From Candidatus Rokuibacteriota bacterium (lineage in GTDB: Bacteria > Methylomirabilota > Methylomirabilia > Rokubacteriales > CSP1-6): a stretch of 64,000 bases of DNA. The notes under the pieces were generated by a model. It worked only from the letters and a program-made list of their open reading frames with translations, ran no database searches and had not been told where the DNA came from. The stretch is from the NCBI GenBank assembly GCA_016184125.1, contig JACPDG010000066.1:1145-65144 (forward strand), written 5' to 3'. Position numbers and translations under genes: made by a program. Shown piece by piece: positions 4,316 to 62,540 of this stretch (position 1 is the first letter of the stretch; the number at the start of each line of letters is the position of its first letter).

Positions 4316-5710
4316 TCAGCCTTTGATCACGCCCATCGGTCGCATGCGGGCCACGCGCCGCGAGATGCCGAACTGGTGGACGACGTCCACGACGTGCTTC
4401 ACGTCCTTGTAAGCCTCCGGCATCTCCTCGGTCAGCGCGTGACGGCCGGTGGCGCGGGCGACGACCCCGCGCTCGCGCAACTCCTCGTCGATGCGCCGCC
4501 CGCGCGCCGCCTTCACCGCCGCGGTCCGGCTCATCACGCGCCCGGCGCCGTGGCAGGTGCTTCCGAAGGTCTCGCGCATGGCGCGCTCGGTGCCGACGAG
4601 GAGGAACGAGTACCGTCCCATGTCACCCGGCACCAGCACGGGCTGGTCGGGGAACGCGCGCGTGGCGCCCTTGCGATGCACGATCAGCTTCCGGCGCCGG
4701 CCGTTGACCTCGTGCTCCTCTTCCTTCGCGATGTTGTGCGCCACGTCGTACAGGATGCGCACGCTCGACGGTGCCAGCCCGAGCACGCGCGCGAGCACCT
4801 CGCGTGTCCAGTGCGTCATGACCTGGCGGTTGGCGAACGCGAAGTTCGCCGCCGATCGCATCGCCCCGAGATACCGTCGCGCCTCCTCGGAGTCGGCGGG
4901 GGCGCACGCGAGCTGGCGGTCGGGGACGGAGATCCGGTAGCGCTTGAGCGCCGCCTCGCTGACCTTGAGGTAATCCGTGCACACCTGGTGGCCAAACCCG
5001 CGAGAACCCGTGTGGATCAGGACGGTCACCTGCCCCACGTGGACGCCGAGACGCTCGGCCCACGCCGGATCGTAGACCTCGTCGATGACCTGCACCTCGA
5101 GGAAATGGTTGCCCGAGCCGAGCGTGCCGAGCTGCTGGAGTCCGCGCTCCATCGCGTGGTCGGAGACGGCGTCGGGTTGCGCGCCATCGATCCGCCCGCG
5201 GGACTCGATGTGGTCGAGATCCTCGGCGAGCCCGTACCCCTGCGCGACGGCCCAGCCGGCGCCGCCGGTCGCAGCGGCGCTGAGCGCCTTGCGGTCCACG
5301 CGGAGCCCACCCTTCGCGCCAACCCCCGTCGGGATCGCGTCGTAGAGCGCGCCGACGAGCACGGGGAGTCGCGGACGGACATCCGCTTCCTCCAGCGTCG
5401 TCGCGAGCAGCCGCACGCCACAGTTGATGTCGAAGCCGATCGCGCCCGGGCTGACGACGCCGTCCCGCGCGTCCGTCGCGATCACGCCGCCCACCGGCAA
5501 CCCGTAGCCCTGGTGGATGTCCGGCATCGCGAACGCGCCCTTCACGATGCCGGGCAGCGTCGCGCCGTTCGCGAGCTGCTCGAGTGACGCGTCGGTCCTG
5601 ATCTGCGTCATGAGCGCCTCGTCCGCGACGACGAATCCGGGCACCCGCATGCCCGGTTTCGCGTCCATCGGGATGCGCCAGAGATAGGGTCCAACCTGCT
5701 CGACGTTCAC
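4316..5710 (-). CDS. rtcB: RtcB family RNA ligase
   Basis: MPDIHQGYG, GFDINCGVR, GSGNHFLE, HRKGATRA, HGAGR, EEMPEAYKDV. Confidence 0.95.
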   Translation of the reverse strand: MNVEQVGPYLWRIPMDAKPGMRVPGFVVADEALMTQIRTDASLEQLANGATLPGIVKGAFAMPDIHQGYGLPVGGVIATDARDGVVSPGAIGFDINCGVRLLATTLEEADVRPRLPVLVGALYDAIPTGVGAKGGLRVDRKALSAAATGGAGWAVAQGYGLAEDLDHIESRGRIDGAQPDAVSDHAMERGLQQLGTLGSGNHFLEVQVIDEVYDPAWAERLGVHVGQVTVLIHTGSRGFGHQVCTDYLKVSEAALKRYRISVPDRQLACAPADSEEARRYLGAMRSAANFAFANRQVMTHWTREVLARVLGLAPSSVRILYDVAHNIAKEEEHEVNGRRRKLIVHRKGATRAFPDQPVLVPGDMGRYSFLLVGTERAMRETFGSTCHGAGRVMSRTAAVKAARGRRIDEELRERGVVARATGRHALTEEMPEAYKDVKHVVDVVHQFGISRRVARMRPMGVIKG

Positions 5711-5723
5711 GAGACCACCGTTT

Positions 5724-5961
5724 TCATGGGGGGACTATCGAGGCCCCCCATACCCCCCGCGCTCGGAGCGCCCCGGCACAGCCGTGGCGCTCCTCGATCA
5801 CCGGTTTCGTTCACAGGATTCCCCGGGGCGCGTGGAGCGCGGGGTCTGGAGCATTGTCGGCCCTCCTGTCCGCCGAGCGAACTCGAGCAGCGGTCCGGGT
5901 TCCCCCGGGCCGCTTGCGAGCGGTCGGGGGGCTTGGGGGGCCCTTCGAGGCCCCCCATGAA
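5724..5961. repeat. inverted pair of two-hairpin dispersed repeats (copies a +, b -)
   Basis: TCATGGGGGGACTATCGAGGCCCCCC...TTTCGTTCAC on +; TCATGGGGGGCCTCGAAGGGCCCCCC... on -. Confidence 0.85.
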
Positions 5962-5962
5962 T

Positions 5963-6751
5963 TCAGGGCGCGGCGACCGTGGAGGTGCGGCGGTGCACCC
6001 AGACGAACCCGATCACGGCGATCAGCACGCCGATGAGGCTCGCCGCCTGCGGCACCCGCACCGAGCCGACCCAGAAGCTGTCGAGCCTCAGCCCCTCGAT
6101 GAGGAACCGGCCGACCGAGTAGAGCCCGATGTACGTGAAGAACACCGCGCCCGGACGCTTGCGGAAGCGCGGCCGGACGGCCGAAACGAGCATGAGAAAG
6201 ACCGCGAGGTCCCACAGCGACTCGTAGAGGAACGTGGGATGGAAATAGTCGTACTGCGCGTAGCCGGGCGGGCGATGCGACGGCGAGATGTAGAGCTTCC
6301 ACGGCAAGTCCGTCGGACGGCCGAAGGCCTCCTCGTTGAAGAAGTTCCCCCATCGCCCGATCGCCTGCCCGATCGCGAGGCCCGGCGCCGCGACGTCGAG
6401 CCCCCGCAGCACGGGGACGCGCCAGCGCCAGGCGAGCAGCGCGCCGACGAGCGGACCGACGATGAGACCGCCGTGGATCGCGAGACCGCCTTCCCACACC
6501 GCGGGGATCTTCCACGGGTACTCGCCGTAGTAATCCCAGTTGAACGCGACCTCGTACAGGCGCGCACCGACCAGGCCGGCCAGGATCGACCACTGCCCGA
6601 TGCTGATGATGTCGTCGGCCGGCAGCTTTTCCCGGCGCGCCTCGCGGTACGCGAGCCAGAGTCCCACGACGATCGACACCGCCATGAGGATGCCGTACCA
6701 CCGCACCGGCAGCGGGCCGATGTAGAACGCGATCGCGCCGGGCGAGGACAT
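5963..6751 (-). CDS. lgt: prolipoprotein diacylglyceryl transferase
   Basis: VRWYG, GARLY, WEGGLAIHGG, GRWGNFFNEEAFG, HPTFLYES. Confidence 0.95.
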   Translation of the reverse strand: MSSPGAIAFYIGPLPVRWYGILMAVSIVVGLWLAYREARREKLPADDIISIGQWSILAGLVGARLYEVAFNWDYYGEYPWKIPAVWEGGLAIHGGLIVGPLVGALLAWRWRVPVLRGLDVAAPGLAIGQAIGRWGNFFNEEAFGRPTDLPWKLYISPSHRPPGYAQYDYFHPTFLYESLWDLAVFLMLVSAVRPRFRKRPGAVFFTYIGLYSVGRFLIEGLRLDSFWVGSVRVPQAASLIGVLIAVIGFVWVHRRTSTVAAP

Positions 6752-6789
6752 GACTGACGTAAGATATCGTTTCGACTCCGATTCGTCCA

Positions 6790-7431
6790 ATGAAGTCCCG
6801 CATCCGGCGCCTCACCGTCCCGCTCGTCCTGCTCGCCGGGCTCGTCACCCTGGCGGCGTTCGCGCTGCCCGCCGTCGGGCTCTGGCTCGTCGTCGCGGAC
6901 GCGCTCGTCCCGAGCGACGCGATCATCGTCCTGGACGGCCGCACGCCGGCGCGTGAGCTCGGCGCCGCGTCGCTCTACCACGCGCGGTTCGCGCCGGTCG
7001 TCGTCCTCGCACGACCGCGCGACATCGTGGGCGAGATCCCGCGACGTCTCGCGGGCCTCCCCACATCGCAGGAGCACGCCGCGCAGGTGCTGCGCCATGT
7101 CCGCGTTCCCGATCGCGCGATCGTCCGCGCCACGGAGATCGCCGACAACACCGAGCAGGAGCTCTCCATCGACTTCGAGCTCGCGCGCGCCCGCGGCTTC
7201 CGGCGGGTGATCATGGTCACGTCGCCCTCGCACACCCGCCGCGTGAAGACCATCTGGCGCCCCTACGACGACCGCGTGCAGGGCCTCGTCTATCCCACAC
7301 CCTGGGAACGCTTCCCCGCCGAGCGCTGGTGGCAGTCGCGCAAGGCGCTCGAGACGACCGTGCACGAGCTGTTCGGCCTGCTGAACCTCGCGCTCGGCAG
7401 CCCGCTGACGACGTTCGACCGCGACGATTGA
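6790..7431 (+). CDS. YdcF/DUF218 (ElyC/SanA-like) protein
   Basis: N-terminal TM, DAIIVLDG, VIMVTSPSHTRR, HELFG. Confidence 0.8.
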   Translation: MKSRIRRLTVPLVLLAGLVTLAAFALPAVGLWLVVADALVPSDAIIVLDGRTPARELGAASLYHARFAPVVVLARPRDIVGEIPRRLAGLPTSQEHAAQVLRHVRVPDRAIVRATEIADNTEQELSIDFELARARGFRRVIMVTSPSHTRRVKTIWRPYDDRVQGLVYPTPWERFPAERWWQSRKALETTVHELFGLLNLALGSPLTTFDRDD

Positions 7432-7504
7432 GAGTTCGCCGGGGCCTCCGCACCGGCCCCGACACCGTAGCGTTCGCGAGGCTCGGAGTGAACCGAGACC
7501 CGTC

Positions 7505-8258: not shown

Positions 8259-8347
8259 GCCGGGGTGGCGGAATTGGCAGACGCAGCGCCCTTAAAAGGC
8301 GCTGGTCCAGGGCGGCCGTGCGGGTTCGATCCCCGCCCCCGGCACCA
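8259..8347 (+). tRNA. tRNA-Leu(TAA)
   Basis: GCCGGGG/CCCCGGC acceptor, anticodon arm GCGCC-CTTAAAA-GGCGC, long variable arm, GTTCGA, encoded CCA. Confidence 0.95.
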
Positions 8348-16972: not shown

Positions 16973-17062
16973 ACGAATCGGCGTGCCGAGACGGGCCCGG
17001 GTTCATCCCGGGCCCGGCGAACGTCGGGGAGGTTGGGGGCCATTTCGGGGCCCCTCATGAAC
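16969..17062 (-). repeat. two-hairpin dispersed repeat (copy c)
   Basis: TTCATGAGGGGCCCCGAAATGGCCCCC...CCCGGG-ATGAA-CCCGGG...GATTCGTTCAC; its GTGAAC end contains the phoD stop. Confidence 0.75.
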
Positions 17063-17066
17063 TCGG

Positions 17067-17756: not shown

Positions 17757-17832
17757 TGGAGGCGGCGGGCGGATTCGAACCGCCGCATAACGGATTTGCA
17801 GTCCGCTCCCTTAACCACTTGGGTACGCCGCC
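17757..17832 (-). tRNA. tRNA-Cys(GCA)
   Basis: GGCGGCG acceptor, GCGGA-CTGCAAA-TCCGT anticodon arm, GTTCGAATCC, CCA. Confidence 0.95.
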
Positions 17833-24826: not shown

Positions 24827-25619
24827 CGTCTGGCAGGTACACGGGCACCACGGCCGTCGTGTCGAGGGCGAGGCACGCCGCCACGTCCAGCCCGTGCCCG
24901 GCCGCGTCGAGGTGCCGGGCCCATCGCGAGTCGACCGCGAGCCGTCCGACGTCTGCGCCATACCGGCGAGCCGTCGTGACCGCCTCGCGCGCCGCCGCCG
25001 TCGGCGTGGTACCGGGCAGACGCTCCACGAGCAGCCCCGCGCACACGGTGTCCTCGAGCGAGGACCGGCCGCGCTCGCCCGCGCAGACGATCACCACGTC
25101 TCGCGCCTGCGCCTCCGCCCAGGCCGACGCCGCGGACGCGTTGACGAGCGCCGCGATACCGACCGCGGCAGCCCGGCGCGCGGCGAGCAGCGCCCGCGTC
25201 CCGTTCGACGTCGTGAAGACCACCGTTCGCCCGCGCACGCGCTCGGAGGCGAAGGCGACCGGCGAGTTGCCGAGGTCGAACCCGGGGACCATCTCACCGC
25301 CCCGCTCGCCGGCCACGATGGCGCCGCCGTCGTCGAATGCGCCGGCGCGCAGGCGCGCGTCCGAGGGGCCGGCCACAGGGACGACCGCGGCCGCGCCGTG
25401 CGCGAGGGCGGTGATGATCGTCGTGCTGGCCCGCAGCACGTCGACGATCAGCACGGCCGCACCCCCCAGCGCCTCCGGGTCGACGGCGTCGGCGGTCGGG
25501 ATGACCTCGACCCGGACGCTCCGTGTGAACGAGTCGAGTCCCCGAGGAGCGGCCCGGGTTCCCCGGGCCGCTTCCGAGCCGCCAATGGGGGGTTTGGGGG
25601 GCCCTTCGAGGCCCCCCAT
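24798..25619 (-). CDS. comB: 2-phosphosulfolactate phosphatase; N-terminus apparently repeat-derived
   Basis: IVDVLRASTTI, GERGG...FDLGNSP, TTSNGT, SLED..CAG; nearest upstream ATG lies in repeat copy d. Confidence 0.85.
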   Translation of the reverse strand: MGGLEGPPKPPIGGSEAARGTRAAPRGLDSFTRSVRVEVIPTADAVDPEALGGAAVLIVDVLRASTTIITALAHGAAAVVPVAGPSDARLRAGAFDDGGAIVAGERGGEMVPGFDLGNSPVAFASERVRGRTVVFTTSNGTRALLAARRAAAVGIAALVNASAASAWAEAQARDVVIVCAGERGRSSLEDTVCAGLLVERLPGTTPTAAAREAVTTARRYGADVGRLAVDSRWARHLDAAGHGLDVAACLALDTTAVVPVYLPDVDKVVLAPR

Positions 25620-25724
25620 GAACTCAGAGGGTGTGACCAAATACCGTTCCCGAGCCGCGGCCCGGGTCCCCCGGGCCGCGTGCGAGTGCGGGGGGTTTGG
25701 GGGGCTTCGATAGTCCCCCCATGA
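25524..25724 (-). repeat. tandem two-hairpin repeats (copies d, e)
   Basis: TCATGGGGGGACTATCGAAGCCCCCC... followed by TCATGGGGGGCCTCGAAGGGCCCCCC...TCGTTCAC. Confidence 0.85.
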
Positions 25725-25726
25725 TC

Positions 25727-26926
25727 TCAGGCGTCACGCAACGCGCGGATCTTGAGGCGCAGCCCTTGGAGGCTGATGAACCCCTCGGCGTCCCGCTGCC
25801 GGTAGACCTCGTCGCGCTCGAACGTGACGAAGTCGGTCCGGTAGAGCGAGCGAGGCGACCGGCGGCCGAGCACGGTCACGTTGCCCTTGTAGAGCTTGAG
25901 CCGGACGGTCCCGGTGACGTCCTTCTGGCACTCGTCGATGAGCGTCTGGAGCGCCTGCCGCTCCGGCGAGAACCAGAACCCGTAGTAGATCATCTCCGCG
26001 TACCGCGGGACCAGCGAGTCGCGCAGGTGCAGCACCTCGCGGTCGAGCGTCAGGGACTCGAGCGCACGATGCGCCACGTGCAGGATCGTGCCCCCGGGGG
26101 TCTCGTACACGCCGCGGCTCTTCATGCCGACGAAGCGGTTCTCCACCATGTCGACACGGCCGATCCCGTGCTCGCCGCCGATACGGTTCAGGCGCGCCAG
26201 CAGGTCCGCGGGACCGAGCGTGACGCCGTCGACAGCGACCGGATTGCCCTGCTCGAAGTCGACGGTGATCTCAACCGGCACGTCGGGTGCCGCCTCCGGC
26301 GACTGCGTGCGGAGGAACATCTTCGCCGGCGGCTCCGCCCACGGGTCCTCCAGGATGCCGCCCTCGTACGAGATGTGGAAGAGGTTGGTGTCCATGGAGT
26401 ACGGGCGCTCGGCCGTCACGGGCACGGGGATGTCGTGCCGCTTCGCGAACTCGATCATGTCGGTCCGCGAGCGCAGGTCCCACTCGCGCCACGGCGCGAT
26501 GACCTTGAGATGCGGCGCGAGCGCGGCGTACGTGAGCTCGAACCGGACCTGGTCGTTGCCCTTCCCGGTCGCGCCGTGCGAGACCGCATCGGCCCCTTCC
26601 TCGAGCGCGATGTCCACCTGCGCCTTGGCGATGAGCGGCCGCGCGATCGAGGTGCCGAGCAGGTAGCCGCCCTCGTAGACGGCGTTGGCGCGGAGCATCG
26701 GGAAGATGTAGTCGCGGACGAACTCCTCCCGGAGGTCCACGATGTGCACGCTCTTCGCGCCCGTCCTGAGCGCCTTGTCGCGGATGGGGATGAGCTCCTC
26801 GCCCTGGCCGAGGTCGGCGCAGTACGCCACGATCTCGCACCGGTAGCGCTCGATGAGCCAGCGCAGGATGACGGAGGTATCGAGGCCTCCGGAGTAGGCC
26901 AGCACGACCTTCGTGTACTCAGGCAT
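25727..26926 (-). CDS. argG: argininosuccinate synthase
   Basis: [33 protein letters not shown]. Confidence 0.97.
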
Positions 26927-29128: not shown

Positions 29129-29146
29129 CACTCTCCTCCGATCGGA

Positions 29147-29225
29147 GTGGGGGGCCCCGACATGGCCCCCCACACCCCCCCAACGCTCGGAAACGCCCCG
29201 GGAAACCCGGGGCGCTCCTCGGGTC
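29147..29225 (+). repeat. two-hairpin dispersed repeat (copy f)
   Basis: GGGGGGCCCCGACATGGCCCCCCACACCCCCCCAACGCTCGGAAACGCCCCGGGAAACCCGGGGCG. Confidence 0.85.
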
Positions 29226-46563: not shown

Positions 46564-46663
46564 CGGACGCGGACAATCCTCCGGATATCAGAGCGGCTTG
46601 CGAATCTGGGCACGCGACCCGCGAGATGCTACCACAACCGTTCGAGCGCGCAACCGACATCGA

Positions 46664-46948
46664 TCATGGGGGGACTATCGAAGCCCCCCATACCCCCCGC
46701 GCGCGGAGCGCCCCGGCCCAGCCGTGGCGCTCCTCGACCACCCGCTTCCTTCATGGGGGGACCATCGCTGCCCCCAAACCCCCCGCGCTCGCGCCCCGGG
46801 ATACCCAGGGATACCAGGGGCGCGGCTCGAGCCCCCAACCCCCGCGCCATCGAGGGCCGTCCCGGGGTTCACGGGTGCGTCCGCGCACCCCCCGGGACGG
46901 GCTCCGAGCGCTGGGGGGTGTGGGGGGCCATGTCGGGGCCCCCCATGA
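46664..46948. repeat. cluster of three two-hairpin repeats (j +, k +, l -)
   Basis: j ends ...CCTTCAT, which is the start of k; l carries the 18-bp hairpin at 46873-46890. Confidence 0.85.
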
Positions 46949-49896: not shown

Positions 49897-49906
49897 GGGG
49901 GTGTCC

Positions 49907-50341: not shown

Positions 50342-50355
50342 GGCGCGCAGACGGG

Positions 50356-51345
50356 CTAGCGGAGCCCGCGGTCGCGCTCCAGCACGCGCGCCACGTCCTT
50401 CGCGAAGTAGGTGATCACGATGTCGGCGCCCGCGCGACGGATCGCGGTCAGCGCCTCCAGCATCGCGCGCTCCTCGTCGAGCCAGCCGAGCTTGCCGGCG
50501 GCCTTGATCATCGCGTACTCACCGGACACCGAGTACGCGGCGACGGGCAGCCCGAACTCGTTCTTCGCCCGCGAGATGATGTCGAGGTACGCCAGCGCGG
50601 GCTTCACCATCACGAGGTCCGCGCCCTCGTCGACGTCGAGCGCGATCTCGCGCATCGCCTCGAGCGCGTTCGCCGGGTCCATCTGGTACGACCGCCGGTC
50701 GCCGAACTGCGGCGACGAGTCCGCGGCTTCCCGGAACGGCCCGTAGAACGCGGACGCGTACTTCGCGGAGTACGCCATGATCGGCGTCTCCAGGTAGTTC
50801 GCGTCGTCGAGCGCCTCGCGGATCGCCGCCACGCGCCCGTCCATCATGTCGGACGGAGCCACCATGTCGGCGCCCGCCTCGGCGTGCGACACTGCCACGC
50901 GCGCGAGCAGGTCCAGCGTCGGGTCGTTCTTCACGCTGCCGTTCTCGACGACGCCGCAGTGGCCGTGGCTGGTGTACTGGCACAGGCACACGTCGGTGAT
51001 GACGAGCAGGTCGGGCACGGTGTCCTTGACCGCCCGGACCGCCTGCTGCACGATCCCGTCGTCCGCGTACGCCTCGCTGCCCCGCGGGTCCTTCTCCTCC
51101 GGCAGCCCGAACAGGATGACCGCCGGGATGCCCATCCCGGCGACGTCCTTCACGTCCTTCACGAGCTCGTCGACGGTCAGCCGATACTGCCCGGGCATCG
51201 AGCCGATGGGCTCCCGGACGCCGCGCCCGTGGATCGCGAACATCGGATAGACGAGGTCCTGCAGGTCGAGGCGGGTCTCGCGGACCATCGTCCTGAGCAG
51301 CGCCTTCTCGCGCAGTCGTCGGGGGCGGAACACCGGATGTGCCAT
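50356..51345 (-). CDS. hemB: porphobilinogen synthase
   Basis: [37 protein letters not shown]. Confidence 0.97.
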
Positions 51346-51346
51346 C

Positions 51347-52153
51347 TCAGCCACTCCTTTGCTCGAAATGAGCCTCGATCGCCCGGACGAGCGCCGGGAT
51401 CGTGTACTCGACCGGCATCACGTGACTCGTCAGACCGTACTCCGCGGCGGTCGCGGCCGTGATCGGCCCGATCGCGGCGATCGTCACGCCGGCGAGCCAC
51501 GCACGCCGCTCGTCCTCCGTGAAGAGCTCGGCGAAGTGCCGCGCCGTGGACGAGCTCGTGAGCGTCACGACGTCGACCCGCCGCGCCGCCACGGCCTCGC
51601 GCACCCGCGCCGCGGCGTCCTCCACCCGGCGCGTGACGTACGCGGCCACTTCGCGGACGACGGCGCCCAGGGCCTCCAGCTGGCGCACGAGGACGTCGCG
51701 CGTGCGCGCCGCCCGCGGCAGCAGCACATGATCGCCGGGCGCGAGCTCGGCGCGCAGGCCGTCGGCGAGCGACTCGGCGCGGTACTCCTCGGGCACGAGG
51801 GCCACGGGCACGTCGTGCTCGCGCAGCGCCCCGGCCGTCGCCGGGCCGATGGCGGCGACGCGTCGCGCGGCGATCGCGCTCCACGGGATGCCGAGCGCCT
51901 CGAGGCGCCGGCCGACCATCGCGACGCCGTTGACGCTCGTGAACACGACCCACCGGAAGCGCTCGATCTCGCCGAGCGCGGCATCGAGCGGCTCCCAGGA
52001 TGGCGGCGGCTCGATCGCGATGGTCGGCGCCTCCAGCACGTCCGCACCGGCGGCCTCGAGCAGCGACCGGAGCGACGCAGCCTGGCTCGCCGCGCGCGTG
52101 ATCGCGACGGTGCGCCCGGCGAGGGGTCCGCTCCGCGTGGTCGCGGCGCTCAT
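51347..52153 (-). CDS. hemD: uroporphyrinogen-III synthase
   Basis: [27 protein letters not shown]. Confidence 0.9.
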
Positions 52154-53067
52154 CGTCCTGCCTCGGGCCTGAGCGCGACGACCGAGGCCGCGCCGCGTTC
52201 CAGCAGCGTGTCGGCGAGCGTGCGGCCCAGCTCGGTCGCCCGCGCGGGATCCCCGCTCGTGCTCGCGCGCAGCACCTGCCGGCCGTCCTCGCTCGCCACG
52301 ACACCGGTGACGTGGAGCGTGCCGCGGTCGAGGCGCGCGTACGCGCCCATCGGCGTCACGCACGAGGCGCCGAGGCGCGCGAGATACGCGCGCTCCGCGG
52401 ACGCGCAGCTGCGGCTCGTCGGATCGTCCAGCCGTCCCAGCCACCCGAGCGTCTCCGCGTCGTCGTCGCGTGCCTCGATCCCGATGATCCCCTGGCCGAC
52501 GGCGGGCACGAAGACCTCGGGATCGAGCGGCTCGGCGTGCTCGAGCGCGAGCCCGAGCCGGCGGATCCCGGCGGCCGCCAGCACGATCGCGTCCCAGCCC
52601 TCGGAATCGAGCTTCCTGAGCCGCGTGTCGACGTTGCCCCGCACCGGCTCGATGCGGAGATCCGGGCGCACCGCCAGCAGCATCGCGCGGCGGCGAGGGC
52701 TCGAGGTCCCGACGACCGCACCCTGTCCGAGCGCCGCGACACCGCCCCCCTGCCGGGTGACGAGCACGTCGCGGGGATCCTCGCGCTCGGGATACGCCGC
52801 CATCGTGAGGCCTGCCGGCACCTCCGCCGGCAAGTCCTTGAGGCTGTGCACCGCGATGTCGATCTCCTTGCGGAGGAGCGCCTGCTCGATGTCGCGCACG
52901 AAGAGCCCCTTGCCGCCGATGTCGGCCAGCCGCTTCTCCACGAGGCGATCGCCCTCCGTCCGCATCGGCACGAGCTCCACCGTCGCGCCGAGGTCGCGCA
53001 GCCGTGTCGCCATCGCGTTCGCCTGCGCGAGCGCCAGCGGGCTCGAGCGCGTCCCGAGACGGATCAC
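52150..53067 (-). CDS. hemC: hydroxymethylbilane synthase
   Basis: GTRSSPLALAQ, GGKGLF, VHSLKD, GTSS.RR, RGNVDTR, LGASC. Confidence 0.96.
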   Translation of the reverse strand: MIRLGTRSSPLALAQANAMATRLRDLGATVELVPMRTEGDRLVEKRLADIGGKGLFVRDIEQALLRKEIDIAVHSLKDLPAEVPAGLTMAAYPEREDPRDVLVTRQGGGVAALGQGAVVGTSSPRRRAMLLAVRPDLRIEPVRGNVDTRLRKLDSEGWDAIVLAAAGIRRLGLALEHAEPLDPEVFVPAVGQGIIGIEARDDDAETLGWLGRLDDPTSRSCASAERAYLARLGASCVTPMGAYARLDRGTLHVTGVVASEDGRQVLRASTSGDPARATELGRTLADTLLERGAASVVALRPEAGR

Positions 53068-54335
53068 GGCTTCCGTCCCAGCCCGAAGAGCTCGTGCACG
53101 AGCTCGGTCCACGAACGGCCGGCGCCCGCGCGCGACGACTCGCGCAGCTTCGTGATCGGCGCGTGCAGGATCTTGTTCACGATGGCCGCCGACAGGGCCT
53201 CGATCGCCTCCCGGGTCTCCGGGGAGCTGTCGCCGAGCCGCCCGAGCGTCTTCTCGACCTCACTCCTGCGGATGGCCTCGAGCCGCTCGCGGAGCGACAC
53301 GATCGTCGGCACGACCTCCGCATCGCGCAGGCGCGCCGAGAACTTCGCGACCTCGCGGTCGACGAGGCTCTCCGCGCGCTGCGCCTCGCGCAGGCGCTCG
53401 CGCAGGTTGGCGTCGACCACCTGGCGCAGGTCGTCGATGTCGTAGCAGTACACGTCGTCGAGCCGGTTCACGTCCGCCTCGACGTCCCGCGGCACCGCGA
53501 TGTCGATGAAGAACAGGGGCCGGCCGCGCCGGTCGCGCATCACGCGCTGGACCATGTCGACGCGGACGAGCGGCTCGCGCGCGCCGGTTGACGTGATCAC
53601 GATGTCCACCGAGCCCATCGCCGCCTCCAGCTCGTCGAACGAGACGGCGGTCCCGCTCAGCGCGCGCGCCATGTCCTGGGCGCGCGCCCACGTCCGGTTG
53701 ACGACGTAGATCGGGAACGCGCCCTGCTCGACGAGGTGGCGCGCGGCCAGTGTCCCCATCTTGCCGGCGCCGACGAGCAGCACCGACTTGCCCTGGAGCC
53801 CCTCGAAGATCTTCTTGGCCAGCTCGACGGCGGCGAACGAGATCGACACCGCGTGGCGCGCGATCTCGGTCTCGGTCCGTACCTTCTTCGCGACGGCGAA
53901 GGCCTGCGTGAAGAGCCGGTGGAGCATCGGGCCGACCGCGGCGGACGCCTGCGCCAGCGCGAAGGCGTCCTTCACCTGTCCGCCGATCTGCGGCTCGCCC
54001 ACGACCATCGAGTCGAGGCTCGACGCCACGCGGAACGCGTGCCGGACCGCGCTGTCCTCCTCGTAGGTGTAGAGGTAGGGCTCGATCTTCGCCGGCTCGA
54101 GCCCGCGATACCGGCAGAGCTGCCGGAACGCCAGCGTCCGCGCCTCCGCGATGACGTCCCCCACGCCGTAGACCTCGACGCGGTTGCACGTCGACAGGAT
54201 CACGACCTCCTCGAGCGGCCCGGCCGTCTGGAGATCGCTCAGGACTTCCCGGAGCTTGTCTTCCTCGACCGCGAGCTGCTCCCGGACGTCGACGGGCGCC
54301 GTCTTGTGCGAGAGCCCCGACACGAACAGGGTCAC
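53064..54335 (-). CDS. hemA: glutamyl-tRNA reductase
   Basis: LSHKTAPV, STCNRVE, SMVVGEPQI, GAGKMG, DIAVPRD. Confidence 0.96.
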   Translation of the reverse strand: MTLFVSGLSHKTAPVDVREQLAVEEDKLREVLSDLQTAGPLEEVVILSTCNRVEVYGVGDVIAEARTLAFRQLCRYRGLEPAKIEPYLYTYEEDSAVRHAFRVASSLDSMVVGEPQIGGQVKDAFALAQASAAVGPMLHRLFTQAFAVAKKVRTETEIARHAVSISFAAVELAKKIFEGLQGKSVLLVGAGKMGTLAARHLVEQGAFPIYVVNRTWARAQDMARALSGTAVSFDELEAAMGSVDIVITSTGAREPLVRVDMVQRVMRDRRGRPLFFIDIAVPRDVEADVNRLDDVYCYDIDDLRQVVDANLRERLREAQRAESLVDREVAKFSARLRDAEVVPTIVSLRERLEAIRRSEVEKTLGRLGDSSPETREAIEALSAAIVNKILHAPITKLRESSRAGAGRSWTELVHELFGLGRKP

Positions 54336-54349
54336 GCGCACACCCGGCG

Positions 54350-54718
54350 ACCGGGCGCAATCACGACGCGTCCGCCGTCCCCGCCGGGTCGAGTGTCGAG
54401 CGATCCGACTTCATGGGGGGCCTCGAAGGGCCCCCCAAACCCCCCGAACGCTCGCACACGCCCCGGCGGGTGCGCGGACGCACCCGCGGAACCCGGGGCG
54501 CGGCTCGACCATCGGATTCGTTCACGGGCTCCGTGAGCGACGTGGCGCGACGTCGATCGGCCCGGCGCGGTCACGAGCCGCCGACTGTTCCCGCCGGGTC
54601 GAGTGTCGAGCGATCCGAGGCCCGAGGGAGGCGCCGACCGGAGCGTACTTCGAGTACGTGAGGATCGGCGACGACCGAGAACGAAGGAGCGCGAAGGCAA
54701 TCGGCCCGGCGCCGTCAC
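54350..54718. repeat. composite insert: duplicated 28-mer, three GTGA-CGC..GG motifs and repeat copy m with a nested 18-bp hairpin
   Basis: CCGCCGGGTCGAGTGTCGAGCGATCCGA at 54381 and 54591; copy m at 54411-54525. Confidence 0.8.
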
Positions 54719-55518
54719 GAGCCGTGCTTTCCGGGGAGGAAGAGCCCTGCGCCGAGGGTGATCGCGAGCGCGACGAACCCGACGATCGAGAAGTACGCCG
54801 CCCGCCGGCCGTGCCATCCGGCCGCGGCACGACCCGCGAGCGTCCCCGCGTAGATCAGCCACACGATCATCGAGAGCGCCGCCAGCGGGTCGAAGGTGAA
54901 CACGCTGCCCCACGAGGCCGGCGCGGACACCATGCCGAGGATCAGGCCCGTCGTGAGGAACGGAAACCCGAGCGCGAGGGTCTGGTACGTCAGGCGGTCG
55001 AGCGTCTGGAGCGACGGCAGCCGGTAGTAGAAGGCTCCCTGCCGCTTCACCTTGATCTGCCGTTCCTGCAGCACGTACATGAGCGCGCCGGCGAAGTTCA
55101 GGACGAACGCCGCGATACCGATGAGTGCCAGGCCGATGTGCACCCAGACCCACGCGCTCACGAGCGCCGTGCCCAGGGCGGGCGGCCGCGCGGCCGACGC
55201 CTTGACCATCAGCACGACGACGACGGGGAACACGAACGCGCCGAGCACGCGCATGCCGTACTGGCGCTCCACCCACATCTCCAGCAGCACGACCACCCAC
55301 ACGGCGACGGACAGCGCCTCGGACAGCGTGCCGAGCGGCGGGCGTCCGATCTGGTGACCGCGGGCGACCAGCGCGATCGTGTGGAGCACCCACCCCGCGA
55401 TGGTGGCGAGGCCCGCGACCCGGTGCACCAACTCGGAGCGATGAATGAGGTAGGCGAGGGCAAGCCCTGCCGCACAAATGTAGGCAACGATTGAGATATT
55501 GAAGGCTGCGACGTGCAT
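54715..55518 (-). CDS. ccsA: cytochrome c assembly protein (CcsA/HemX-like)
   Basis: Multi-TM, W..VH, Q..K.K...F..RLPSL..LD, GFPFLT.G; upstream of hemA. Confidence 0.8.
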   Translation of the reverse strand: MHVAAFNISIVAYICAAGLALAYLIHRSELVHRVAGLATIAGWVLHTIALVARGHQIGRPPLGTLSEALSVAVWVVVLLEMWVERQYGMRVLGAFVFPVVVVLMVKASAARPPALGTALVSAWVWVHIGLALIGIAAFVLNFAGALMYVLQERQIKVKRQGAFYYRLPSLQTLDRLTYQTLALGFPFLTTGLILGMVSAPASWGSVFTFDPLAALSMIVWLIYAGTLAGRAAAGWHGRRAAYFSIVGFVALAITLGAGLFLPGKHGS

Positions 55519-55595
55519 CCTCTCGCGTCCCGGGCGAGTGTACCACATTCCCGCATAATCCCGCCGACTTGGTGGGTTAGGATACCGACCGGCCG

Positions 55596-56156
55596 ATGAG
55601 CGAGCTTCATCTGATCAGGGATGCGCGAGAGGTCCTGCGAAGGCGTACGCTCCTGCCACCGGGGACGTTCGTGGAAGTGTGGCCGGATCTCGAGCTCGAG
55701 GACCACGTCTGGGTCGGACAGGACGCCAAGACCCTCCTCGACGGCGCCGGGCCGGTGCTCGCCCCGGTCCTCTCCGTCGACGGCAATCAGGTAGCGATCT
55801 ACTACGGGCCGTGGCTGACCGACACCGAGGGACTTCCGACCGAGCAGTCGCTGCGCACGCGGATCGTCTCCGCTCACGGCATCGCCGCAGCCTGGGTCAC
55901 GCGGGATCGGTTCGGCCAGCGCACCGAGGTCCGGCCCACCTCGCCGCTCGATGCGACGTTCGCGCTCAGGCGGCCGCGCACCGGCGTGGCGCATCTGTGG
56001 CGACTGTTCAGGACGGACGACGAGGCCCGCGCGTACCTGCGCGAGTTCTACGGCGACGATCCGGAGGCGCTGGCGTGGGCCGATCGCATCGCCGTCCGGA
56101 GCTACGCCGAGCTGCTCGAGCGCCACGCGCGCGGCGGCGAGCCCGGCGCGCGCTGA
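55596..56156 (+). CDS. hypothetical protein
   Basis: 186-aa ORF with GC3-biased codons; no family recognised. Confidence 0.7.
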   Translation: MSELHLIRDAREVLRRRTLLPPGTFVEVWPDLELEDHVWVGQDAKTLLDGAGPVLAPVLSVDGNQVAIYYGPWLTDTEGLPTEQSLRTRIVSAHGIAAAWVTRDRFGQRTEVRPTSPLDATFALRRPRTGVAHLWRLFRTDDEARAYLREFYGDDPEALAWADRIAVRSYAELLERHARGGEPGAR

Positions 56157-56204
56157 CCGCGGCGGTGGGCACGCTCGATGGCCCTCCCGTACGCCGAGTC
56201 AAGA

Positions 56205-56280
56205 CGAGGGGCGGCCCGGGTTTCCCGGGCCGCTTCCGAGCCGCCATGGGGGGCTTGGGGGGCTTCGATAGTCCCCCCAA
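56205..56280 (-). repeat. two-hairpin repeat (copy n) directly after the fdhE stop
   Basis: TGA-TTGGGGGGACTATCGAAGCCCCCCAAGCCCCCC...GCGGCCCGGGAAACCCGGGCCGC. Confidence 0.85.
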
Positions 56281-57144
56281 TCAGTCAGTCCGCGCGGTGA
56301 CGACGAGCGGGACGAGCGGCCGCGCGTAGCCCTCCCGGAGCGCGACGACGTCGAAATGCGGCGAGCCCCAGTCCTCCACGAGCGCAGGGCCGGCGTTCCA
56401 GCGCTCGCGCCGATCGACCGACTTGAGATACGCGCGGCACCTGGTGCACGTCGCCAGCGCGTAGCCTCCCTCCGGCCCCTCCGCCGTCATGCGCCGGAGC
56501 TCCTTCGCGTCGTCCGTCCCGCAGAACGGGCAGCGGAGCCGCGAGAACGCCCACGCGCCGCCACAGAGGTGACACGCGAGCTCGAGTCGTCCGTCCTCGC
56601 CGATGTCGCCCCATGCCGGTGGCGCGCCGCAGAAGGGGCACACGCCGAGCGACCAGTCGCCGTGGACAAGGTGCTCGTGGCACGGGGCGAACACCTGTTC
56701 GAGCAGCGGCCGGAGGCTGCCGATCGCGAGGAACCCGACGAGGTCCGGAGCGAGCCCGGTCGTGACCGGCACACCGAAGCCGCCGCGGGACGGCAGCAGG
56801 GAGGCCGGCCGGACGTCGCCGCGCTCCCAGGCCGCGGCGAACGCCTCCACGGCGGGCGCGGCGTCCGGCCGCACCGTCGCCACGACGCCGAGGAGCGGCC
56901 CGAGCAGCGCCTCGACCGGCTCCGTCCGGAGATCGGGGCGGACCTCCGCGATGAGCGGGACACCGCGGCTCCATCGCTCGCGGCACGCGTCCGCGTCCAC
57001 GTCGAGCGGCGCGGCAAGCGCGGAGACCTCGGCCCAGAGGTCGAACACCGCCCCGTACGCCGAGAGCGCAGCCGACAGCGCGGCCCGGCGCCGGAGGACG
57101 TCCGCCCACGCCTCGCGGAGGTCGAGAGCCACGCAGGCGGTCAC
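56281..57144 (-). CDS. fdhE: formate dehydrogenase accessory protein
   Basis: CPFCG, CHLC, CPFCG, CTRC..YLK. Confidence 0.85.
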   Translation of the reverse strand: MTACVALDLREAWADVLRRRAALSAALSAYGAVFDLWAEVSALAAPLDVDADACRERWSRGVPLIAEVRPDLRTEPVEALLGPLLGVVATVRPDAAPAVEAFAAAWERGDVRPASLLPSRGGFGVPVTTGLAPDLVGFLAIGSLRPLLEQVFAPCHEHLVHGDWSLGVCPFCGAPPAWGDIGEDGRLELACHLCGGAWAFSRLRCPFCGTDDAKELRRMTAEGPEGGYALATCTRCRAYLKSVDRRERWNAGPALVEDWGSPHFDVVALREGYARPLVPLVVTARTD

Positions 57145-58736: not shown

Positions 58737-61700
58737 CTACACCACTCCCTTCTTCACGCTGCACACGAACGCCTTCGTCTCCTGGATGAAGACGGTCGGG
58801 TCGCCGACGGTCGCGGAGAGATCGTTCGTGATGTCGCCCTTCGAGCCGGGCAGCGCGTCGATGCCCTTGTAGCCCCAGTGCCACGGCACGCCGATCTGGT
58901 GGACCTTCTTGCCGTCGACGACGAACGGCTTGAGGCGGCTCGTCACCATGGCGCGCACGTGGATCTTCCCGCGCGGGCTCGCCACGGTGACCATCTCGCC
59001 GTTCGCGATGCCGAGCTCGCCGGCGAGCTCGTGGCTGATCTCGGCGAAGTGCGAGTGGTGCAGCTCCGCGAGGAACGGCAGCTGCCGCGACATGACGCCC
59101 GACAGGTGATGCTCCGTCAGGCGGTAGGTCGTGATGACGTACGGGAACTCCTTGGAGCCGACCGGGGCGAGGACGTTCTTCTCGTCCGGCACTTCCCAGA
59201 TCTTCGCGACCGGATTCCGCTGCTGCTTGGACAGCAGGTTGACCACGGGCGACTCGACCGGCTCGTAGTGCTCCGGGAACGGCCCGTCGACCAGCGGTCC
59301 GAACAGCGCCCCGACGAGGTCCGCGCGCATGATGAACGGCTTGTCGCCGTTCTTCCCGTCGGGAGCGAGCAGCGCATTGAAGTCCGGCACGTCGAGCCCC
59401 ACCCACTTGCCGGGCTTGTCGGGCGCGCCCGGCGCTTGCGGGTCCCACCAGATCAGCTTCTTCTTCTCGCTCCACGGCTTGCCGGTGAGGTCGGCCGAGG
59501 CGCGGTTGTAGAGGAGCCGGCGGTTCGCGGGCCACGCGAAGCCCCACCCGTGGCCGAGGTAGTCCTTGGCGTCGGCCGGCTTGCGCGACGCCGCGCGGTT
59601 GACGAGCTTGCCGTCCGGCGTCTCGTTGATCACGCCGCCATAGATCCAGCAGCCGCCGGCGGTCGCGCCGTCGTCCGTGAGGTGAGCGAAGGTGCTGAGC
59701 GCCTGCCCCTTCTTGTAGAGGGGCTTGCCGTCCTTGTCGGCGATGTCCCGCGCCGCGTAGCCGCTGATCTCCTTGAGCACGAGCTCCATGTTCGGCTCGT
59801 CGGGATGCTCGCCGTACGTGAAGTTCGCCGCGCGGAAGCCCTGGTCGCGGTCCTTCTTCGAGCCTGCGTAGAGCTTCTGCAGGCGATGCGCGAGGCGCAC
59901 GATGAACGCCGCGTCCGACGTGCAGTCGCCGGGCGGCTTGACCGCCGCTTCGTGCCACTGGATGAGCCGCATCGTGTTCGTGAGCGACCCGTCCTTCTCG
60001 GCCGCCGGCGCCATCGGGAAGAAGAAGACCTCCGTCTTGACGTCCTTCGGGTTCGTCCCGGGCGCCTTCCAGACCTCGGCGGTTTCCGTGATGAAGATGT
60101 CGTTGACGACGAGCCAGTCGAGCTTCTGCATCGCCGCGCGCGCGAGCTTGGCGTTCGGGCCGCCGACCGCCGGGTTCTGGCCCATCGCGAGGAAGCCCCT
60201 GATCTTGCCCGCGTACATGTCGACGAAGATGTGCTGGTGGCTGTACGCGTCGGCCGAGGCCCGCTTCGGCAGCCACTGGTAGCCGTACTCGTTCTTCTCG
60301 GTCGCCGCGTCGCCGTAGAACGCCTTCAGCAGGCTGATGAAGAACTTCGGCTTGTTGATCCAGTAGCCGCCCTTCGGCGTCTCCTTGTCGAGGTAGGTCG
60401 CGAGGTCCGGGTGCACGTCGCGGAGCGGCTGCGCCATGTACCCCGGCAGCTCGTGGAACAGTAGCTCGAGGTCGGTCGCGCCTTGCACGTTGGCGTGGCC
60501 GCGCAGGGCGACGACGCCGCCGCCCGGCCGTCCGACGTTCCCCAGCAACAGCTGCAGCATGCAGAGGGCGCGGATGTTCTCGACGCCGGTCGTGTGCTGC
60601 GTGAGGTTGAGCGCGTACGTGATCGCCCCGGTCTTCTCCGGGCCGCTGTGCTCACAGTAGAGCTTCGCCACTGCGAGGAACTTGGCCTTCGGGATGCCGC
60701 ACACGCGCTCGACCATGTCCGGGGTGTAGCGGCTGTAGTGGCGGCGCAGGAGCTGGAAGACCGAGTGCGGGTCCTTCAGCGTCAGGTCCCGTTTGGGGTT
60801 GCCGTCGGCATCGAGCTGGTACTTCCACGTCGACCGGTCGTACGTCTTCTTGCTCGTGTCGAAGCCGCTGAACAGGCCGTCGCCGTCCGTCGCCGTCTTG
60901 AACGCGGGGTCGATGAGGAACGACGCGTTCGTGTAGTGGACGACGTAGTCCTTGAAATAGAGGTTGTTCTCGATCGCGTGGTGGATCAGACCGCCGAAGA
61001 ACGCGATGTTCGTGCCCGAGCGGATGGGCACATGCAGGTCGGCCGCCGCGCTCGTGCGCGTGTAGCGCGGATCGACGTGGATGAGCTTCGCGCCGCGCTC
61101 CTTGGCCTTCATCACCCACTGGAAGCCGACCGGGTGGTTCTCGGCCATGTTGGACGTCGCCATGATGACGTCCGCATGCTGGATGTCGATCAGGTTGGTG
61201 GTCATCGCGCCCCGCCCAAACGTGGTCCCCAAAGCTGGGACCGTGGCGGAGTGTCAGACCCTGGCCTGATGCTCGTGGTAGACGATGCCGTACGTGCGGT
61301 TGAACTTCGACAGGAGGTACGCCTCCTCGTTGTCGATGCAGGCCGACCCGAGCGAGGCGATCGCCTCCAGCCGGTTCACCGTCACGTCCCGGCCGTCCTT
61401 GCCCTTCTCCTTCTCGATGAAGTGCTTCTCGCGCGTGTCGTAGTAGCGCTTCACCAGCTCGGTGTACATCCAGTCGAGCGGCTTCTCCTCCCACCGGTCG
61501 GAGCCCGGCGCGCGGTAGAGCGCCTTCGTCGGCCTCAGCGGGTTGTTGGAGAGCTGGATCGTCGCGGCGCCCTTCGGGCAGAGCCGCCCGAGCGTGTGCG
61601 GCGTGTCCGGGTCGCCCTCGATGTCGATGATCTTCCCGTCCTTCGCGTAGACGAGTTGTCCGCAGCCGACGGCGCAGTACGGGCAGACGCTGTGGGCGAC

Positions 61701-61832
61701 CTTCGCCTCCTTGATCTTGAGCGAGGTCGCCGCGGCTTCGACGGGGGCGACATCGATGCCGCGCGCGCCGATCGCGACGCCGGCCGCGGTGGTGCCGCCG
61801 AATTTCAGGAACTCACGCCGGTTGAGACTCAT
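58737..61832 (-). CDS. fdnG: selenocysteine-containing formate dehydrogenase alpha subunit (TGA at 61254-61256 read as Sec)
   Basis: Tat NRREFLK, CPYCAVGC, HQARV-TGA-HSATVPALG.TFGRGAMT; ORFs 61254..61832 and 58737..61232 are in the same frame. Confidence 0.92.
61224..61242 (-). promoter_or_regulatory. bacterial SECIS hairpin
   Basis: GGTCCC-AGCTTTG-GGGACC starting 11 nt after the TGA; locally atypical A/T-containing codons. Confidence 0.75.
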
Positions 61833-61916
61833 GAGCCACCTCCTGCCGGGCAGGCGCGCCCGGAACGTGTCGCCAGGACATGGACCTTGCGGTGACGCCG
61901 ACCGCGGTCGTCCACG

Positions 61917-62192
61917 TTAGAACTCGGGGCTGCTGAACTCGTCCCAGACGCGCCGGACCACGCGGATCCGCTCCGCGGCGCCGGGGTTCGATTCGATGCG
62001 CACGATGTCGCCGGCGCAGAGCGCGTCCAGACCTCCCTGGACGTCGTCCGCAACGACCTCGGCCTCGCCGCTGCAGGTGACGTCCGTGCACACGCCGGCG
62101 GTCCCCTTGAGGCGGATCCGCCGCGCGGCGGTGTCGACAGCCACGACGGTGAGCCGGCTCTCGTGCAACCAGTCGGTGACGCTCTGAGCCAT
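61917..62192 (-). CDS. small beta-rich hypothetical protein leading the fdh operon
   Basis: GGAGG RBS; 91 aa, VVAVD...L..L..GD.V.I pattern (OB-fold-like), three Cys. Confidence 0.7.
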   Translation of the reverse strand: MAQSVTDWLHESRLTVVAVDTAARRIRLKGTAGVCTDVTCSGEAEVVADDVQGGLDALCAGDIVRIESNPGAAERIRVVRRVWDEFSSPEF

Positions 62193-62229
62193 CGCGCACC
62201 TCCGTTTGTAGAATGGTGAAGTGCCGCGA

Positions 62230-62258
62230 AGGCTAAAGCACATGCCCTAGGCTGTCAA
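62230..62258 (-). promoter_or_regulatory. sigma70 promoter of the fdh operon
   Basis: TTGACA-N17-TAGCCT. Confidence 0.65.
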
Positions 62259-62334
62259 GCGGACGCACCTGTAACAGTGGATATCGGCCAAACTTATCGG
62301 ACCGTTACAAAAAGGACAGATGGTCCGACCAATA

Positions 62335-62540
62335 TCATGGGGGGACTATCGAAGCCCCCCAAGCCCCCCGCGCTCGGAGCGCCCCGCGGGGGTGCGCGGC
62401 CGCACCCGTGGTGCGCGGACGCACCCGCCAAAGCCGTGGCACTCCTCGATCACCCGATTCGCCCACGGGCTCATAGCGCGCGCCAGCTCGGCGAACTGGA
62501 CTCGATGCCGGCTTCCCTCGATCACCCGACTCGTTCACGG
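62335..62540 (+). repeat. two-hairpin repeat (copy o) with two nested small hairpins and a duplicated tail
   Basis: TCATGGGGGGACTATCGAAGCCCCCC...; nested GGTGCGCGG(C/A)CGCACCC at ~62390 and ~62409; CTCGATCACCCGA twice. Confidence 0.85.

Follow-up and report, generated by a model that had tools for sequence, protein, structure and literature searches.

A family of modular hairpin repeats, gained and lost at orthologous sites, in a Rokubacteriales genome

The 64,000 nucleotides analysed here (the window) belong to a Candidatus Rokuibacteriota bacterium (contig JACPDG010000066.1 of assembly GCA_016184125.1) and carry housekeeping genes: rtcB, lgt, argG/F/D/B, dprA-topA-xerC-hslVU, moeA, the genes of alternative complex III, hemA/C/D/B and formate-dehydrogenase-like genes. 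Dispersed among them are copies of a short GC-rich element that consists of two hairpins in series and a tail. A first-pass annotation, made from the letters of the window, had listed 15 copies and proposed a non-autonomous family moved by HUH enzymes. We find that the family is real, abundant (about 580 or more copies in the genome), structured and lineage-restricted, and that it has been mobile. The window is region C69:1145-65144 of genome G000, a metagenome-assembled genome (MAG) of 4,085,520 bases in 121 contigs with 70.7% GC and 92.8% completeness. A covariance model, R1, was built from 10 window copies and run with cmsearch. It recovered all 15 reported loci, 14 as full-length matches that score 50-92 bits (E between 4.9e-15 and 2.1e-7) and the divergent locus at 39405 with E 0.0015; 16 other R1 matches in the window are reverse-strand echoes of the same palindromes. 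A regular expression for the head of the element (G5+ N6-14 C5+ N2-5 C5+) matched 13 times in the window. The copies and their partial relatives are the following.

5716..5814, plus strand: copy with loop ACTATCGAGG, hairpin 2 and tail TTTCGTTCAC, upstream of the rtcB start; R1 85.4 bits, E 8e-14 (5716-5797)
5883..5968, minus strand: copy with loop CCTCGAAGG; its 5' CTGA supplies or overlaps the lgt TGA stop (5963-5965); R1 84.5 bits
16963..17068, minus strand: copy whose G-run is degraded to GAGGGG, with hairpin 2 and the complete tail GATTCGTTCACGGGCTC; R1 65.6 bits (16986-17068)
25523..25629, minus strand: second copy in the tandem pair that lies downstream of argG; R1 91.2 bits (25542-25629)
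25650..25732, minus strand: copy abutting the argG stop (TGA 25727-25729); R1 92.0 bits
27852..27957, plus strand: array of the 21-nt unit GGGGTGCGCGGACGCACCCGT, five in tandem, translated in frame at the C-terminal end of argD
29138..29222, plus strand: copy of the "GT-head" type with loop CCCCGACATGG; R1 76.8 bits
36550..36633, plus strand: first copy in the tandem pair that lies upstream of dprA; a stretch of 74 nt is the same in the copy that follows; R1 90.7 bits
36641..36724, plus strand: the other copy of the dprA-upstream pair; R1 84.3 bits
39415..39489, minus strand: divergent relative, G5-loop-C5 and a second GC hairpin; R1 28.9 bits, E 0.0015
46656..46753, plus strand: copy whose tail TTCCTTCA runs directly into the next head; R1 81.5 bits (46656-46737)
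46743..46830, plus strand: copy with an aberrant hairpin 2; R1 50.1 bits
46850..46956, minus strand: copy with one nested 21-nt unit; its 5' CTGA overlaps the stop of an aminotransferase gene (46951-46953); R1 61.4 bits
54403..54531, plus strand: copy upstream of hemA that holds one nested unit and the complete tail; R1 63.5 bits (54403-54508); fold -43.4 kcal/mol, z -3.65
56204..56290, minus strand: copy between convergent genes; R1 87.2 bits
62327..62472, plus strand: copy with two nested units and tail GATTCGCCCACGGGCTC; R1 52.9 bits (62327-62409)
62505..62545, plus strand: orphan CTCGA and tail module CCCTCGATCACCCGACTCGTTCACGGGCTC, no hairpins

The orphan tail at 62505-62545, the five-unit array at 27852-27957 and the nested units in 46850-46956, 54403-54508 and 62327-62449 come in addition to the loci listed earlier. 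Among the 59 predicted proteins of the window no transposase was found, the only recombinase being XerC-like, in line with the earlier statement that no mobilising enzyme is encoded there.

The elements are about 85-125 nt long. The consensus of 567 genome copies begins with (C)YGA-NN-TCAT and continues with hairpin 1 (G6-loop-C6-ANN-C6), G/A-CGCTCG-GA-N, the hairpin-2 stem GCGSCCCGGG..CCCGGGSCGC, (C)CTCGA, GATTCGTTCAC-GGGCT and a closing CYGA(G). It reproduces the architecture given in the first-pass annotation, TCAT-G6-[CGA loop]-C6-A-NN-C6-..GCTCG-[GC stem]-CTCG..-TTCGTTCAC. The tail module reads TTCGTTCAC-GGGCTC, and its strict motif is present in 138 of the 567 copies. Loops of hairpin 1 fall into subfamilies, CCCCGA(C/A)ATGG (213 copies), ACTATCGA(A/T/G)G (163), CCTCGAAGGG (35) and others, and YCGA is common to them all. 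A second head style, ..GGGAAGT-G6, is usually followed by a partial second head. A third, alternative head, GGGGGCTCACGCCCCCC (..GACACTCGTACGAAGGGGGCTCACGCCCCCCTCGTACTCCCCCGGCCCC), is unrelated in sequence; its 48 copies, for instance at C5:107854-108004, precede the usual hairpin 2 and tail, and at times it is inserted behind a G6 head. There is, further, a nested 19/21-nt mini-hairpin, GGTGCGCGGACGCACCCGT, with 263 units genome-wide in 185 arrays of 1-5 units. In the examples inspected these units lie in the apical loop of hairpin 2, on the same strand as the host element. Of the 185 arrays, 137 lie next to a recognised G6 head or tail; 12 of the others were inspected and have either the alternative head, a degraded one or no element at all. 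At least four modules thus make up the mosaic of the family.

Most tandem copies outside the window are joined as ...GGGCTC-TGAG-ATCAT-GGGGGG. The shared TTCAT junction described for one tandem pair does exist at 46743-46753, where tail TTCA is fused to head TGGGGGG, and is atypical of tandem copies. Since TCAT and TTCAC both lie inside the element, the "TTCAY junctions" proposed earlier are not its ends; the motif that recurs at the flanks is (C)YGA(S). The consensus has no terminal inverted repeats, the head S-N-TCATGGGGGG showing no match to the reverse-complemented tail AGCCCGTGAACG.

Secondary structure was assessed in an alignment, fitted to the model, of 27 copies taken from the window, from elsewhere in G000 and from relatives. 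As can be seen from the share of cells that pair (94.8%, compared with 81.8% in shuffles, none of 500 of which reached the observed value) and from changes on both sides in 10 of 20 pairs (matched by 0/500 shuffles), the stems are kept while the loops vary, as had been noticed at first inspection. Hairpin 2 has such changes in 9 of its 12 pairs; the G6/C6 stem is invariant and thus uninformative on covariation. Slid controls were 41-59% paired. A separate palindrome search found 4617 of 4751 pairs to be Watson-Crick in 422 copies, and folds computed for single-stranded DNA gave z-scores of -2.5 to -4.3 on both strands. The consensus fold is two unlike hairpins side by side. A guide-like pairing of the left flank with the tail, suggested by the fold of 54400-54535, was discarded, as on visual inspection it does not extend generally to the other copies. 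The comparison with Rfam that had been named as a check gave, at gathering thresholds over the whole window, no match at the copies, only a cobalamin riboswitch and three tRNAs; at E<=1 over 46600-47000 there was one match at chance level (18.3 bits). We also observed that in the CCGGC..GCCGTGG subfamily of hairpin 2 (e.g. 5769-5789) a C:T mismatch at the fifth pair from the loop is conserved in 24 distinct hairpins; a binding protein could tell the strands apart by a fixed mismatch of this sort.

In the 4.09-Mb genome there are 584 matches to the head motif, compared with one in a first-order Markov simulation of equal size and composition. With R1 at E<=1e-6, an evenly sampled set of 121 genomes of the phylum yielded matches in 48 of the 72 genomes of one family (f1) and in only 1 of 48 genomes from eight other families. 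In a set of 41 relatives matches were present in 21 of 24 f1 genomes and in 2 of 16 from the rest of the order, the latter with single matches each. The tallies of both sets take in three unpublished genomes, G011, G024 and G122, from which no sequence was drawn. Loads are patchy, from zero to beyond the counting cap, with carriers and non-carriers inside some genera; high loads occur in the genera of G000/G001, G021, G023 and G065, and f1 genomes with none include G009, G062, G066, G081 and G096, which are 98-100% complete. In metagenome contigs 80 hemA loci were found, all at no more than 80% protein identity, and the head motif occurred anywhere in only five of them. Most copies have their nearest partner at 90-98% identity, and only two have a partner at 100%, which speaks for lineage-specific spread that is not demonstrably ongoing.

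Units have been gained and lost at orthologous sites among these related, uncultured bacteria of soil and groundwater, as comparison with five syntenic relatives (73-83% nucleotide identity to the window) shows; the presence/absence polymorphism bears out the view of a dispersed, structured and non-autonomous family. Downstream of argG the window has two copies, G021 one, and G001 and G023 none. A site near 31766, between hslU and hslV, is filled in G002 and G023 and empty in G000, G001, G021 and G015; another near 32313, between hslV and xerC, is filled in G001 only. At both of these sites the junctions are too diverged for a base-exact comparison. In G002 the locus orthologous to 25500-25740 (L016) holds about 180 nt of other hairpin-containing sequence (GGAGCGGGGAGCTCGGAAGCTCCCGCC ... 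GTTTCACGAACTCTCA), which may be another repeat family in the same spacer. Groundwater metagenomes (11 runs from three studies, with no RNA run among them) gave no usable evidence of excision or empty sites over 36450-56400, the Logan contigs of runs X3, X5, X6 and X7 being short and broken at repeats, with joints that stem from other copies.

One empty site is base-exact. In G000 contig C113, a gene for a 2833-residue protein contains an in-frame insertion of 102 nt, and the 34 residues that it adds are absent from 13 of the 13 closest orthologs in public genomes. The filled allele reads ..CAGCGGTCCGAG|GTCATGGGGGG...TTCACGGGC|TCCGAG|ACCCCGG (left flank in shorter form GGTCCGAG), with TCCGAG on both sides, while the empty alleles have a single motif: ..TCCGAA|GCCG in G023, ..TCCGAC|GCCG in G021 and ..CCCGAC|AGCG in G001. 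The in-gene copies of C27 and C77 lie in linkers that are not alignable with relatives. A block of about 96-102 nt is inserted at (T/C)CYGA(S) and the motif is left on both sides.

Genome-wide, the flanks read C(.69) Y G A S on the left and C(.81) Y G A G on the right. Of 24 copies whose two motifs are in register, 20 have the Y position in one and the same state left and right (Fisher p 0.003); among the 15 that lack tandem neighbours the number is 12. Either insertion duplicates a very short target of 3-4 nt, or the motif beside which the element inserts is also part of the element itself. The Y state shows a modest association with loop subfamily (p about 0.001), which does not choose between the two origins. 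A longer target duplication of 5-7 nt was rejected, as its signal is largely an effect of tandem neighbours: with 25 of 61 copies removed, only position -9 was significant.

Two strand asymmetries, both new here, bear on the mode of movement. Firstly, transition mismatches in hairpin 2 are A:C in 26 cells and G:T in 8; over 188 distinct hairpins the counts are 24 and 7, spread over several stem positions (binomial p 0.003). An A:C pair in the written strand corresponds to a G:T wobble in the opposite one, so that it is the complement whose fold is better preserved. Secondly, orientation was compared with GC skew, calculated from coding DNA only within ±15 kb of a copy with all copies masked. 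At |skew|>0.01 the two-by-two table is 76, 121 / 90, 65 (odds ratio 0.45, p 4e-4) and at |skew|>0.02 it is 26, 69 / 37, 24 (odds ratio 0.24, p 5e-5), the written strand tending to be C-rich and the complement G-rich. The bias survives merging of copies within 400 nt into 487 clusters (p 9e-4 and 2e-4), and orientation shows no association with the majority gene strand (odds ratio 1.24, p 0.33). Leading strands are as a rule G-rich, so that the G-rich strand is the lagging-strand template. The wobble and skew signals are mutually independent, in agreement and modest, and together they fit with movement as single-stranded DNA. Elements of the IS200/IS605 family are reported to insert in the orientation that places their active strand on the lagging-strand template (PMC5027513).

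The interpretation that we prefer, with belief and doubt evenly balanced, is that these are lineage-restricted, non-autonomous modular hairpin repeats that move as single-stranded DNA by means of an enzyme acting in trans. The hairpins of the single strand would be recognised by that enzyme at the replication fork, in a mode resembling that of repetitive extragenic palindromes (REPs) and REPINs or the "peel and paste" of the IS200/IS605 type. The active strand would be the complement of the orientation used in the first-pass annotation and would read GTGAACGAA...G6-NNT-G6-loop-C6-ATGA; a tail-to-head circle junction would read ...GGGCT|N-TCATGGGG. A more specific version, which we regard as unlikely, is that a so far unrecognised enzyme acts on the single-stranded hairpins at the fork and integrates them next to YGA triplets, including those of stop codons, being neither a Y1 nor a Y2 HUH protein and having no link to TnpB. 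This would be a new peel-and-paste-like system of one Rokubacteriales family, with the mini-hairpin as a second, orientation-locked layer.

A number of observations weigh against movement as single-stranded DNA by a trans-acting enzyme, and the search for that enzyme supplied several of them. Identical 5-mers stand on both sides of only 10 of 61 copies, which bears on the origin of the flank motif, and the single base-exact empty site fits a duplication as well as a fixed right end. Very recent activity is not evident from partner identities. The wobble asymmetry is drawn from 31-34 cells; the orientation bias is no stronger than about 2:1, among copies that share ancestry and are not independent, and a hand count of contig majorities found 16 of 23 contigs in the expected direction. 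Replication direction was read from skew alone, no origin having been mapped in the 121-contig MAG. In G000 there is no full-length Y1_Tnp, only one PF01797 match, the C-terminal half of a protein at a contig end. Y1_Tnp occurs in 10 of the 41 genomes, mostly repeat-free ones, and is anticorrelated with load; a copy lies within 1.5 kb of only 1 of 20 Y1 or Y2 loci. TnpB (PF07282) is present in 0/5 high-load genomes and DDE_Tnp_4 (Harbinger/IS5-like, duplicating TNA) in 0/41, other DDE families not having been searched; Y2/IS91 (23/41) and RVT_1 (16/41) do not track load. A scan of 40 of the 42 G000 genes that lie between two copies identified 34 as ordinary enzymes or transporters and left 6 with no match in Pfam; no nuclease or transposase domain was present in any of the 40. 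NCBIfam gave nothing above cut-off for those six, one of which looks like a pseudopilin.

An IS91-like mobiliser was considered and rejected, as a copy is found at one G000 gene only, the other five Y2 loci examined lack one, and Y2 presence does not follow load. The gene in question (Y2_Tnp with a zinc finger, 498 residues, C19:63676-65172 within locus L122, 63362-65410) has a repeat copy about 200 nt upstream of it. Behind the gene come five tandem repeats of 22 nt, GGGGGCGGACGCGAGAACCG, whose core GCGGACGC also occurs in the nested 21-nt unit, and in front of it stands GAACGAGTGAACGAGTG, which resembles the reverse of the repeat tail; these features are missing from the other Y2 loci.

MAGs lose short repeat-flanked contigs, and those searched were 72-100% complete, so that the absence of a mobiliser gene is not proven. 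The rival that we hold to be next in rank, improbable as it seems to us, builds on this: the repeats would be true REPs served by a REP-associated tyrosine transposase (RAYT), or palindrome-associated elements of the IS200/IS605 type, whose Y1 gene has dropped out of the assemblies together with such contigs. This would fit the hairpins and the strand asymmetries, and also the constant motif at the flanks and the lack of terminal inverted repeats. Contigs often end in copies, several R1 matches lie within about 150 nt of contig starts, the sole Y1 match of G000 is at a contig end, and tnpA-REP genes are patchy in general, as the accessible part of PMC6006769 has it. Against this rival, no Y1 was found in G001, G002, G021, G023 or G024, all with at least 66 scored copies, whereas the other f1 genomes that do carry Y1 are G006 and G014 (0 copies) and G018 (2 copies). 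Y1 loci were found in 10 genomes, 14 in all, and around none of them does a copy lie within 1.5 kb. The G000 fragment itself (C45:3887-4151, locus L001) is an IS200-type TnpA that lacks its N-terminal HUH half and lies in DNA that by reading is lower in GC. It is followed by a CCCCCC-AATAAATT-GGGGGG hairpin of a polarity (C6-loop-G6) opposite to that of the repeat. The unit, moreover, is not an inverted REP doublet. A RAYT or TnpA gene flanked by the repeat, which the HUH proposal had led one to look for, turned up in none of the genomes searched, and of that proposal the single-stranded mode has gained indirect support from the asymmetries, while membership in REP/RAYT or IS200/IS605 has found none.

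According to gene calls from a crude GC3-based model (3523 genes covering 85% of G000), 442 of 567 copies lie in intergenic spacers, and every count that rests on gene ends is only as good as these calls. The intergenic target is often the TGA stop of the upstream gene: of 311 copies with a stop-side neighbour, 125 have that stop 1-7 nt ahead of the G-run, most frequently (59 copies) at a distance of 6 nt. Occupied spacers number 71 of 311 convergent, 270 of 1870 tandem and 35 of 346 divergent ones. Host-serving structural or regulatory sites, which bind a protein, stabilise mRNA 3' ends or insulate as enterobacterial REPs and bacterial interspersed mosaic elements (BIMEs) do, and which spread by recombination, slippage and gene conversion, are in our estimate a decidedly improbable account of the family. 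Such sites would suit the placement at gene ends, above all in convergent spacers, the loops conserved within subfamilies with YCGA throughout, the mosaic modules, tandem arrays and variable numbers of nested units, and the failure to find an enzyme. They leave the precise 102-nt insertion and 31 intragenic copies hard to explain, and many related genomes manage without the units. In tandem-gene contexts orientation relative to transcription is 160:160, the hairpins are followed by ANN-C6 or CTCGA and not by a T-run, and none of five terminator-like sites in 36450-56400 falls on any of the eight copies there. The even split together with the lack of terminator overlap makes an orientation-dependent RNA role unlikely; the split in itself is no proof of mobility and in this respect belongs with the reservations above.

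The 31 intragenic copies each lie at least 90 nt inside a predicted open reading frame. Twenty of them are co-oriented, and 14 of these share the frame ATG GGG GGA, which gives MGGLSKPPKPP..DSFTGSE (MGGLSKPPKPPAL...DSFTGSE). The element is open in its main frames, and therefore in-frame copies inside genes survive. Since the left and right TGA of the consensus are in one frame, a left CGA variant reads through to the right TGA. At argD the array 27852-27957 forms a C-terminal tail of five times seven residues that ends at a TGA overlapping the argF ATG. The argD/argF flanks are 141 nt apart in the window compared with 38-63 nt in five relatives, and the Pfam match of ArgD stops at residue 403 of 443.

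A classical DDE-type miniature inverted-repeat transposable element that duplicates a short target (YGA or CYGAS, 3-5 bp) would account for the similar motif at both flanks with its shared Y state, for TCCGAG on either side of the clean in-gene insertion and for the single CTGAG common to tandem neighbours, and is nevertheless most improbable given the missing terminal inverted repeats, the few identical 5-mers and the DDE_Tnp_4 result.

Among the known systems closest to the family are REP/REPIN-RAYT families (PMC3116915, PMC3337134 and PMC6006769). They too comprise short GC-rich palindromes, hundreds of them, that lie outside genes near gene ends, occur clustered and in either orientation, are non-autonomous and lineage-specific, and are predicted to form hairpins in single-stranded DNA. 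The replicative unit of a REPIN is two inverted REPs that form one long hairpin (Bertels and Rainey 2011, PMC3116915, part consulted). Here, in contrast, two different hairpins stand in series with a tail, copies also lie in frame within genes, and no repeat-flanked RAYT is present in the genomes searched. Miniatures of IS200/IS605 elements such as IS608 and ISDra2 (PMC3201880, PMC5027513) share subterminal imperfect hairpins and the lack of terminal inverted repeats. They may also be alike in a fixed short flank motif and in an orientation bias tied to replication-linked strand composition. Such elements insert 3' of a fixed tetra- or pentanucleotide without target duplication; here (C)YGA(S) stands on the left flank and again on the right. 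They differ in that here there is no full-length parent element with matching ends, no tnpB and only an unrelated-looking fragment of tnpA, in that the motif stands on both flanks (which may be a duplication) and in that the bias is about 2:1 and not near-absolute.

The Rickettsia palindromic elements (RPEs) are palindromic repeats of 100-150 nt found in frame in unrelated genes, to which they add a conserved peptide (PMC10969869, excerpt). The in-frame copies described here are alike by that description, although they occur in a different phylum at 70% GC and the family is mostly intergenic, at stop codons. To our knowledge no transposase is known for RPEs. BIMEs of E. coli and Salmonella are mosaics of palindromic units, and the alternative heads (G6 584, GGGGGCTCACGCCCCCC 48), optional tail, nested units and tandem arrays of our family recall them; the modules, however, are unrelated in sequence, and binding of IHF, gyrase or Pol I is without support here. 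The mycobacterial interspersed repetitive units are intercistronic, with ends that overlap the stop and start codons of flanking genes, a trait that by description is shared, but are tandem minisatellites without the two-hairpin architecture. As the repeat departs from each family tested in a defining feature (REPIN doublet and RAYT, parent insertion sequence, terminal inverted repeats), it was filed under none: it is a REP/BIME/RPE-like family whose mobiliser is not among the families tested.

Rokubacteria are uncultured bacteria with large genomes and 8-17% non-coding DNA (Becraft et al. 2017, PMC5712423), and the sections of that paper available to us make no mention of repeats. A search of the literature on repeats and palindromes of Rokubacteria, with ISfinder outside the comparison, found no description of the family. 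Hundreds of copies of it shape the breaks of MAG assemblies, sit on stop codons genome-wide and add tails and internal peptides to proteins, as the 34-residue insert of the 2833-residue protein and the five-by-seven-residue tail of ArgD illustrate. Should the asymmetries hold in closed genomes, they would amount to REP-like single-strand behaviour without a RAYT. In that case the mover of orphan hairpin repeats, RPEs too, could be tested for directly by comparing repeat-rich with repeat-free genomes of the same genus.

Several further features of the window were noted. The cobalamin riboswitch (Rfam RF00174, 92.7 bits) lies at 21080-21259 on the minus strand, and the tRNA genes are at 8259-8344 (plus), 17760-17832 (minus) and 17864-17935 (minus). 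A 62-nt exact repeat at the window end (63858-63919 and 63939-64000, 81 nt apart), inside a predicted minus-strand gene, has no relation to the hairpin family. A molybdopterin oxidoreductase on the minus strand is predicted in two pieces, of 831 residues (58737-61232) and, with the N-terminal Fe4S4 domain, of 192 residues (61254-61832), separated by about 20 nt; together with an FdhE-like gene at 62831-63694 it looks like a selenocysteine-containing formate dehydrogenase with an in-frame TGA and not like a broken gene.

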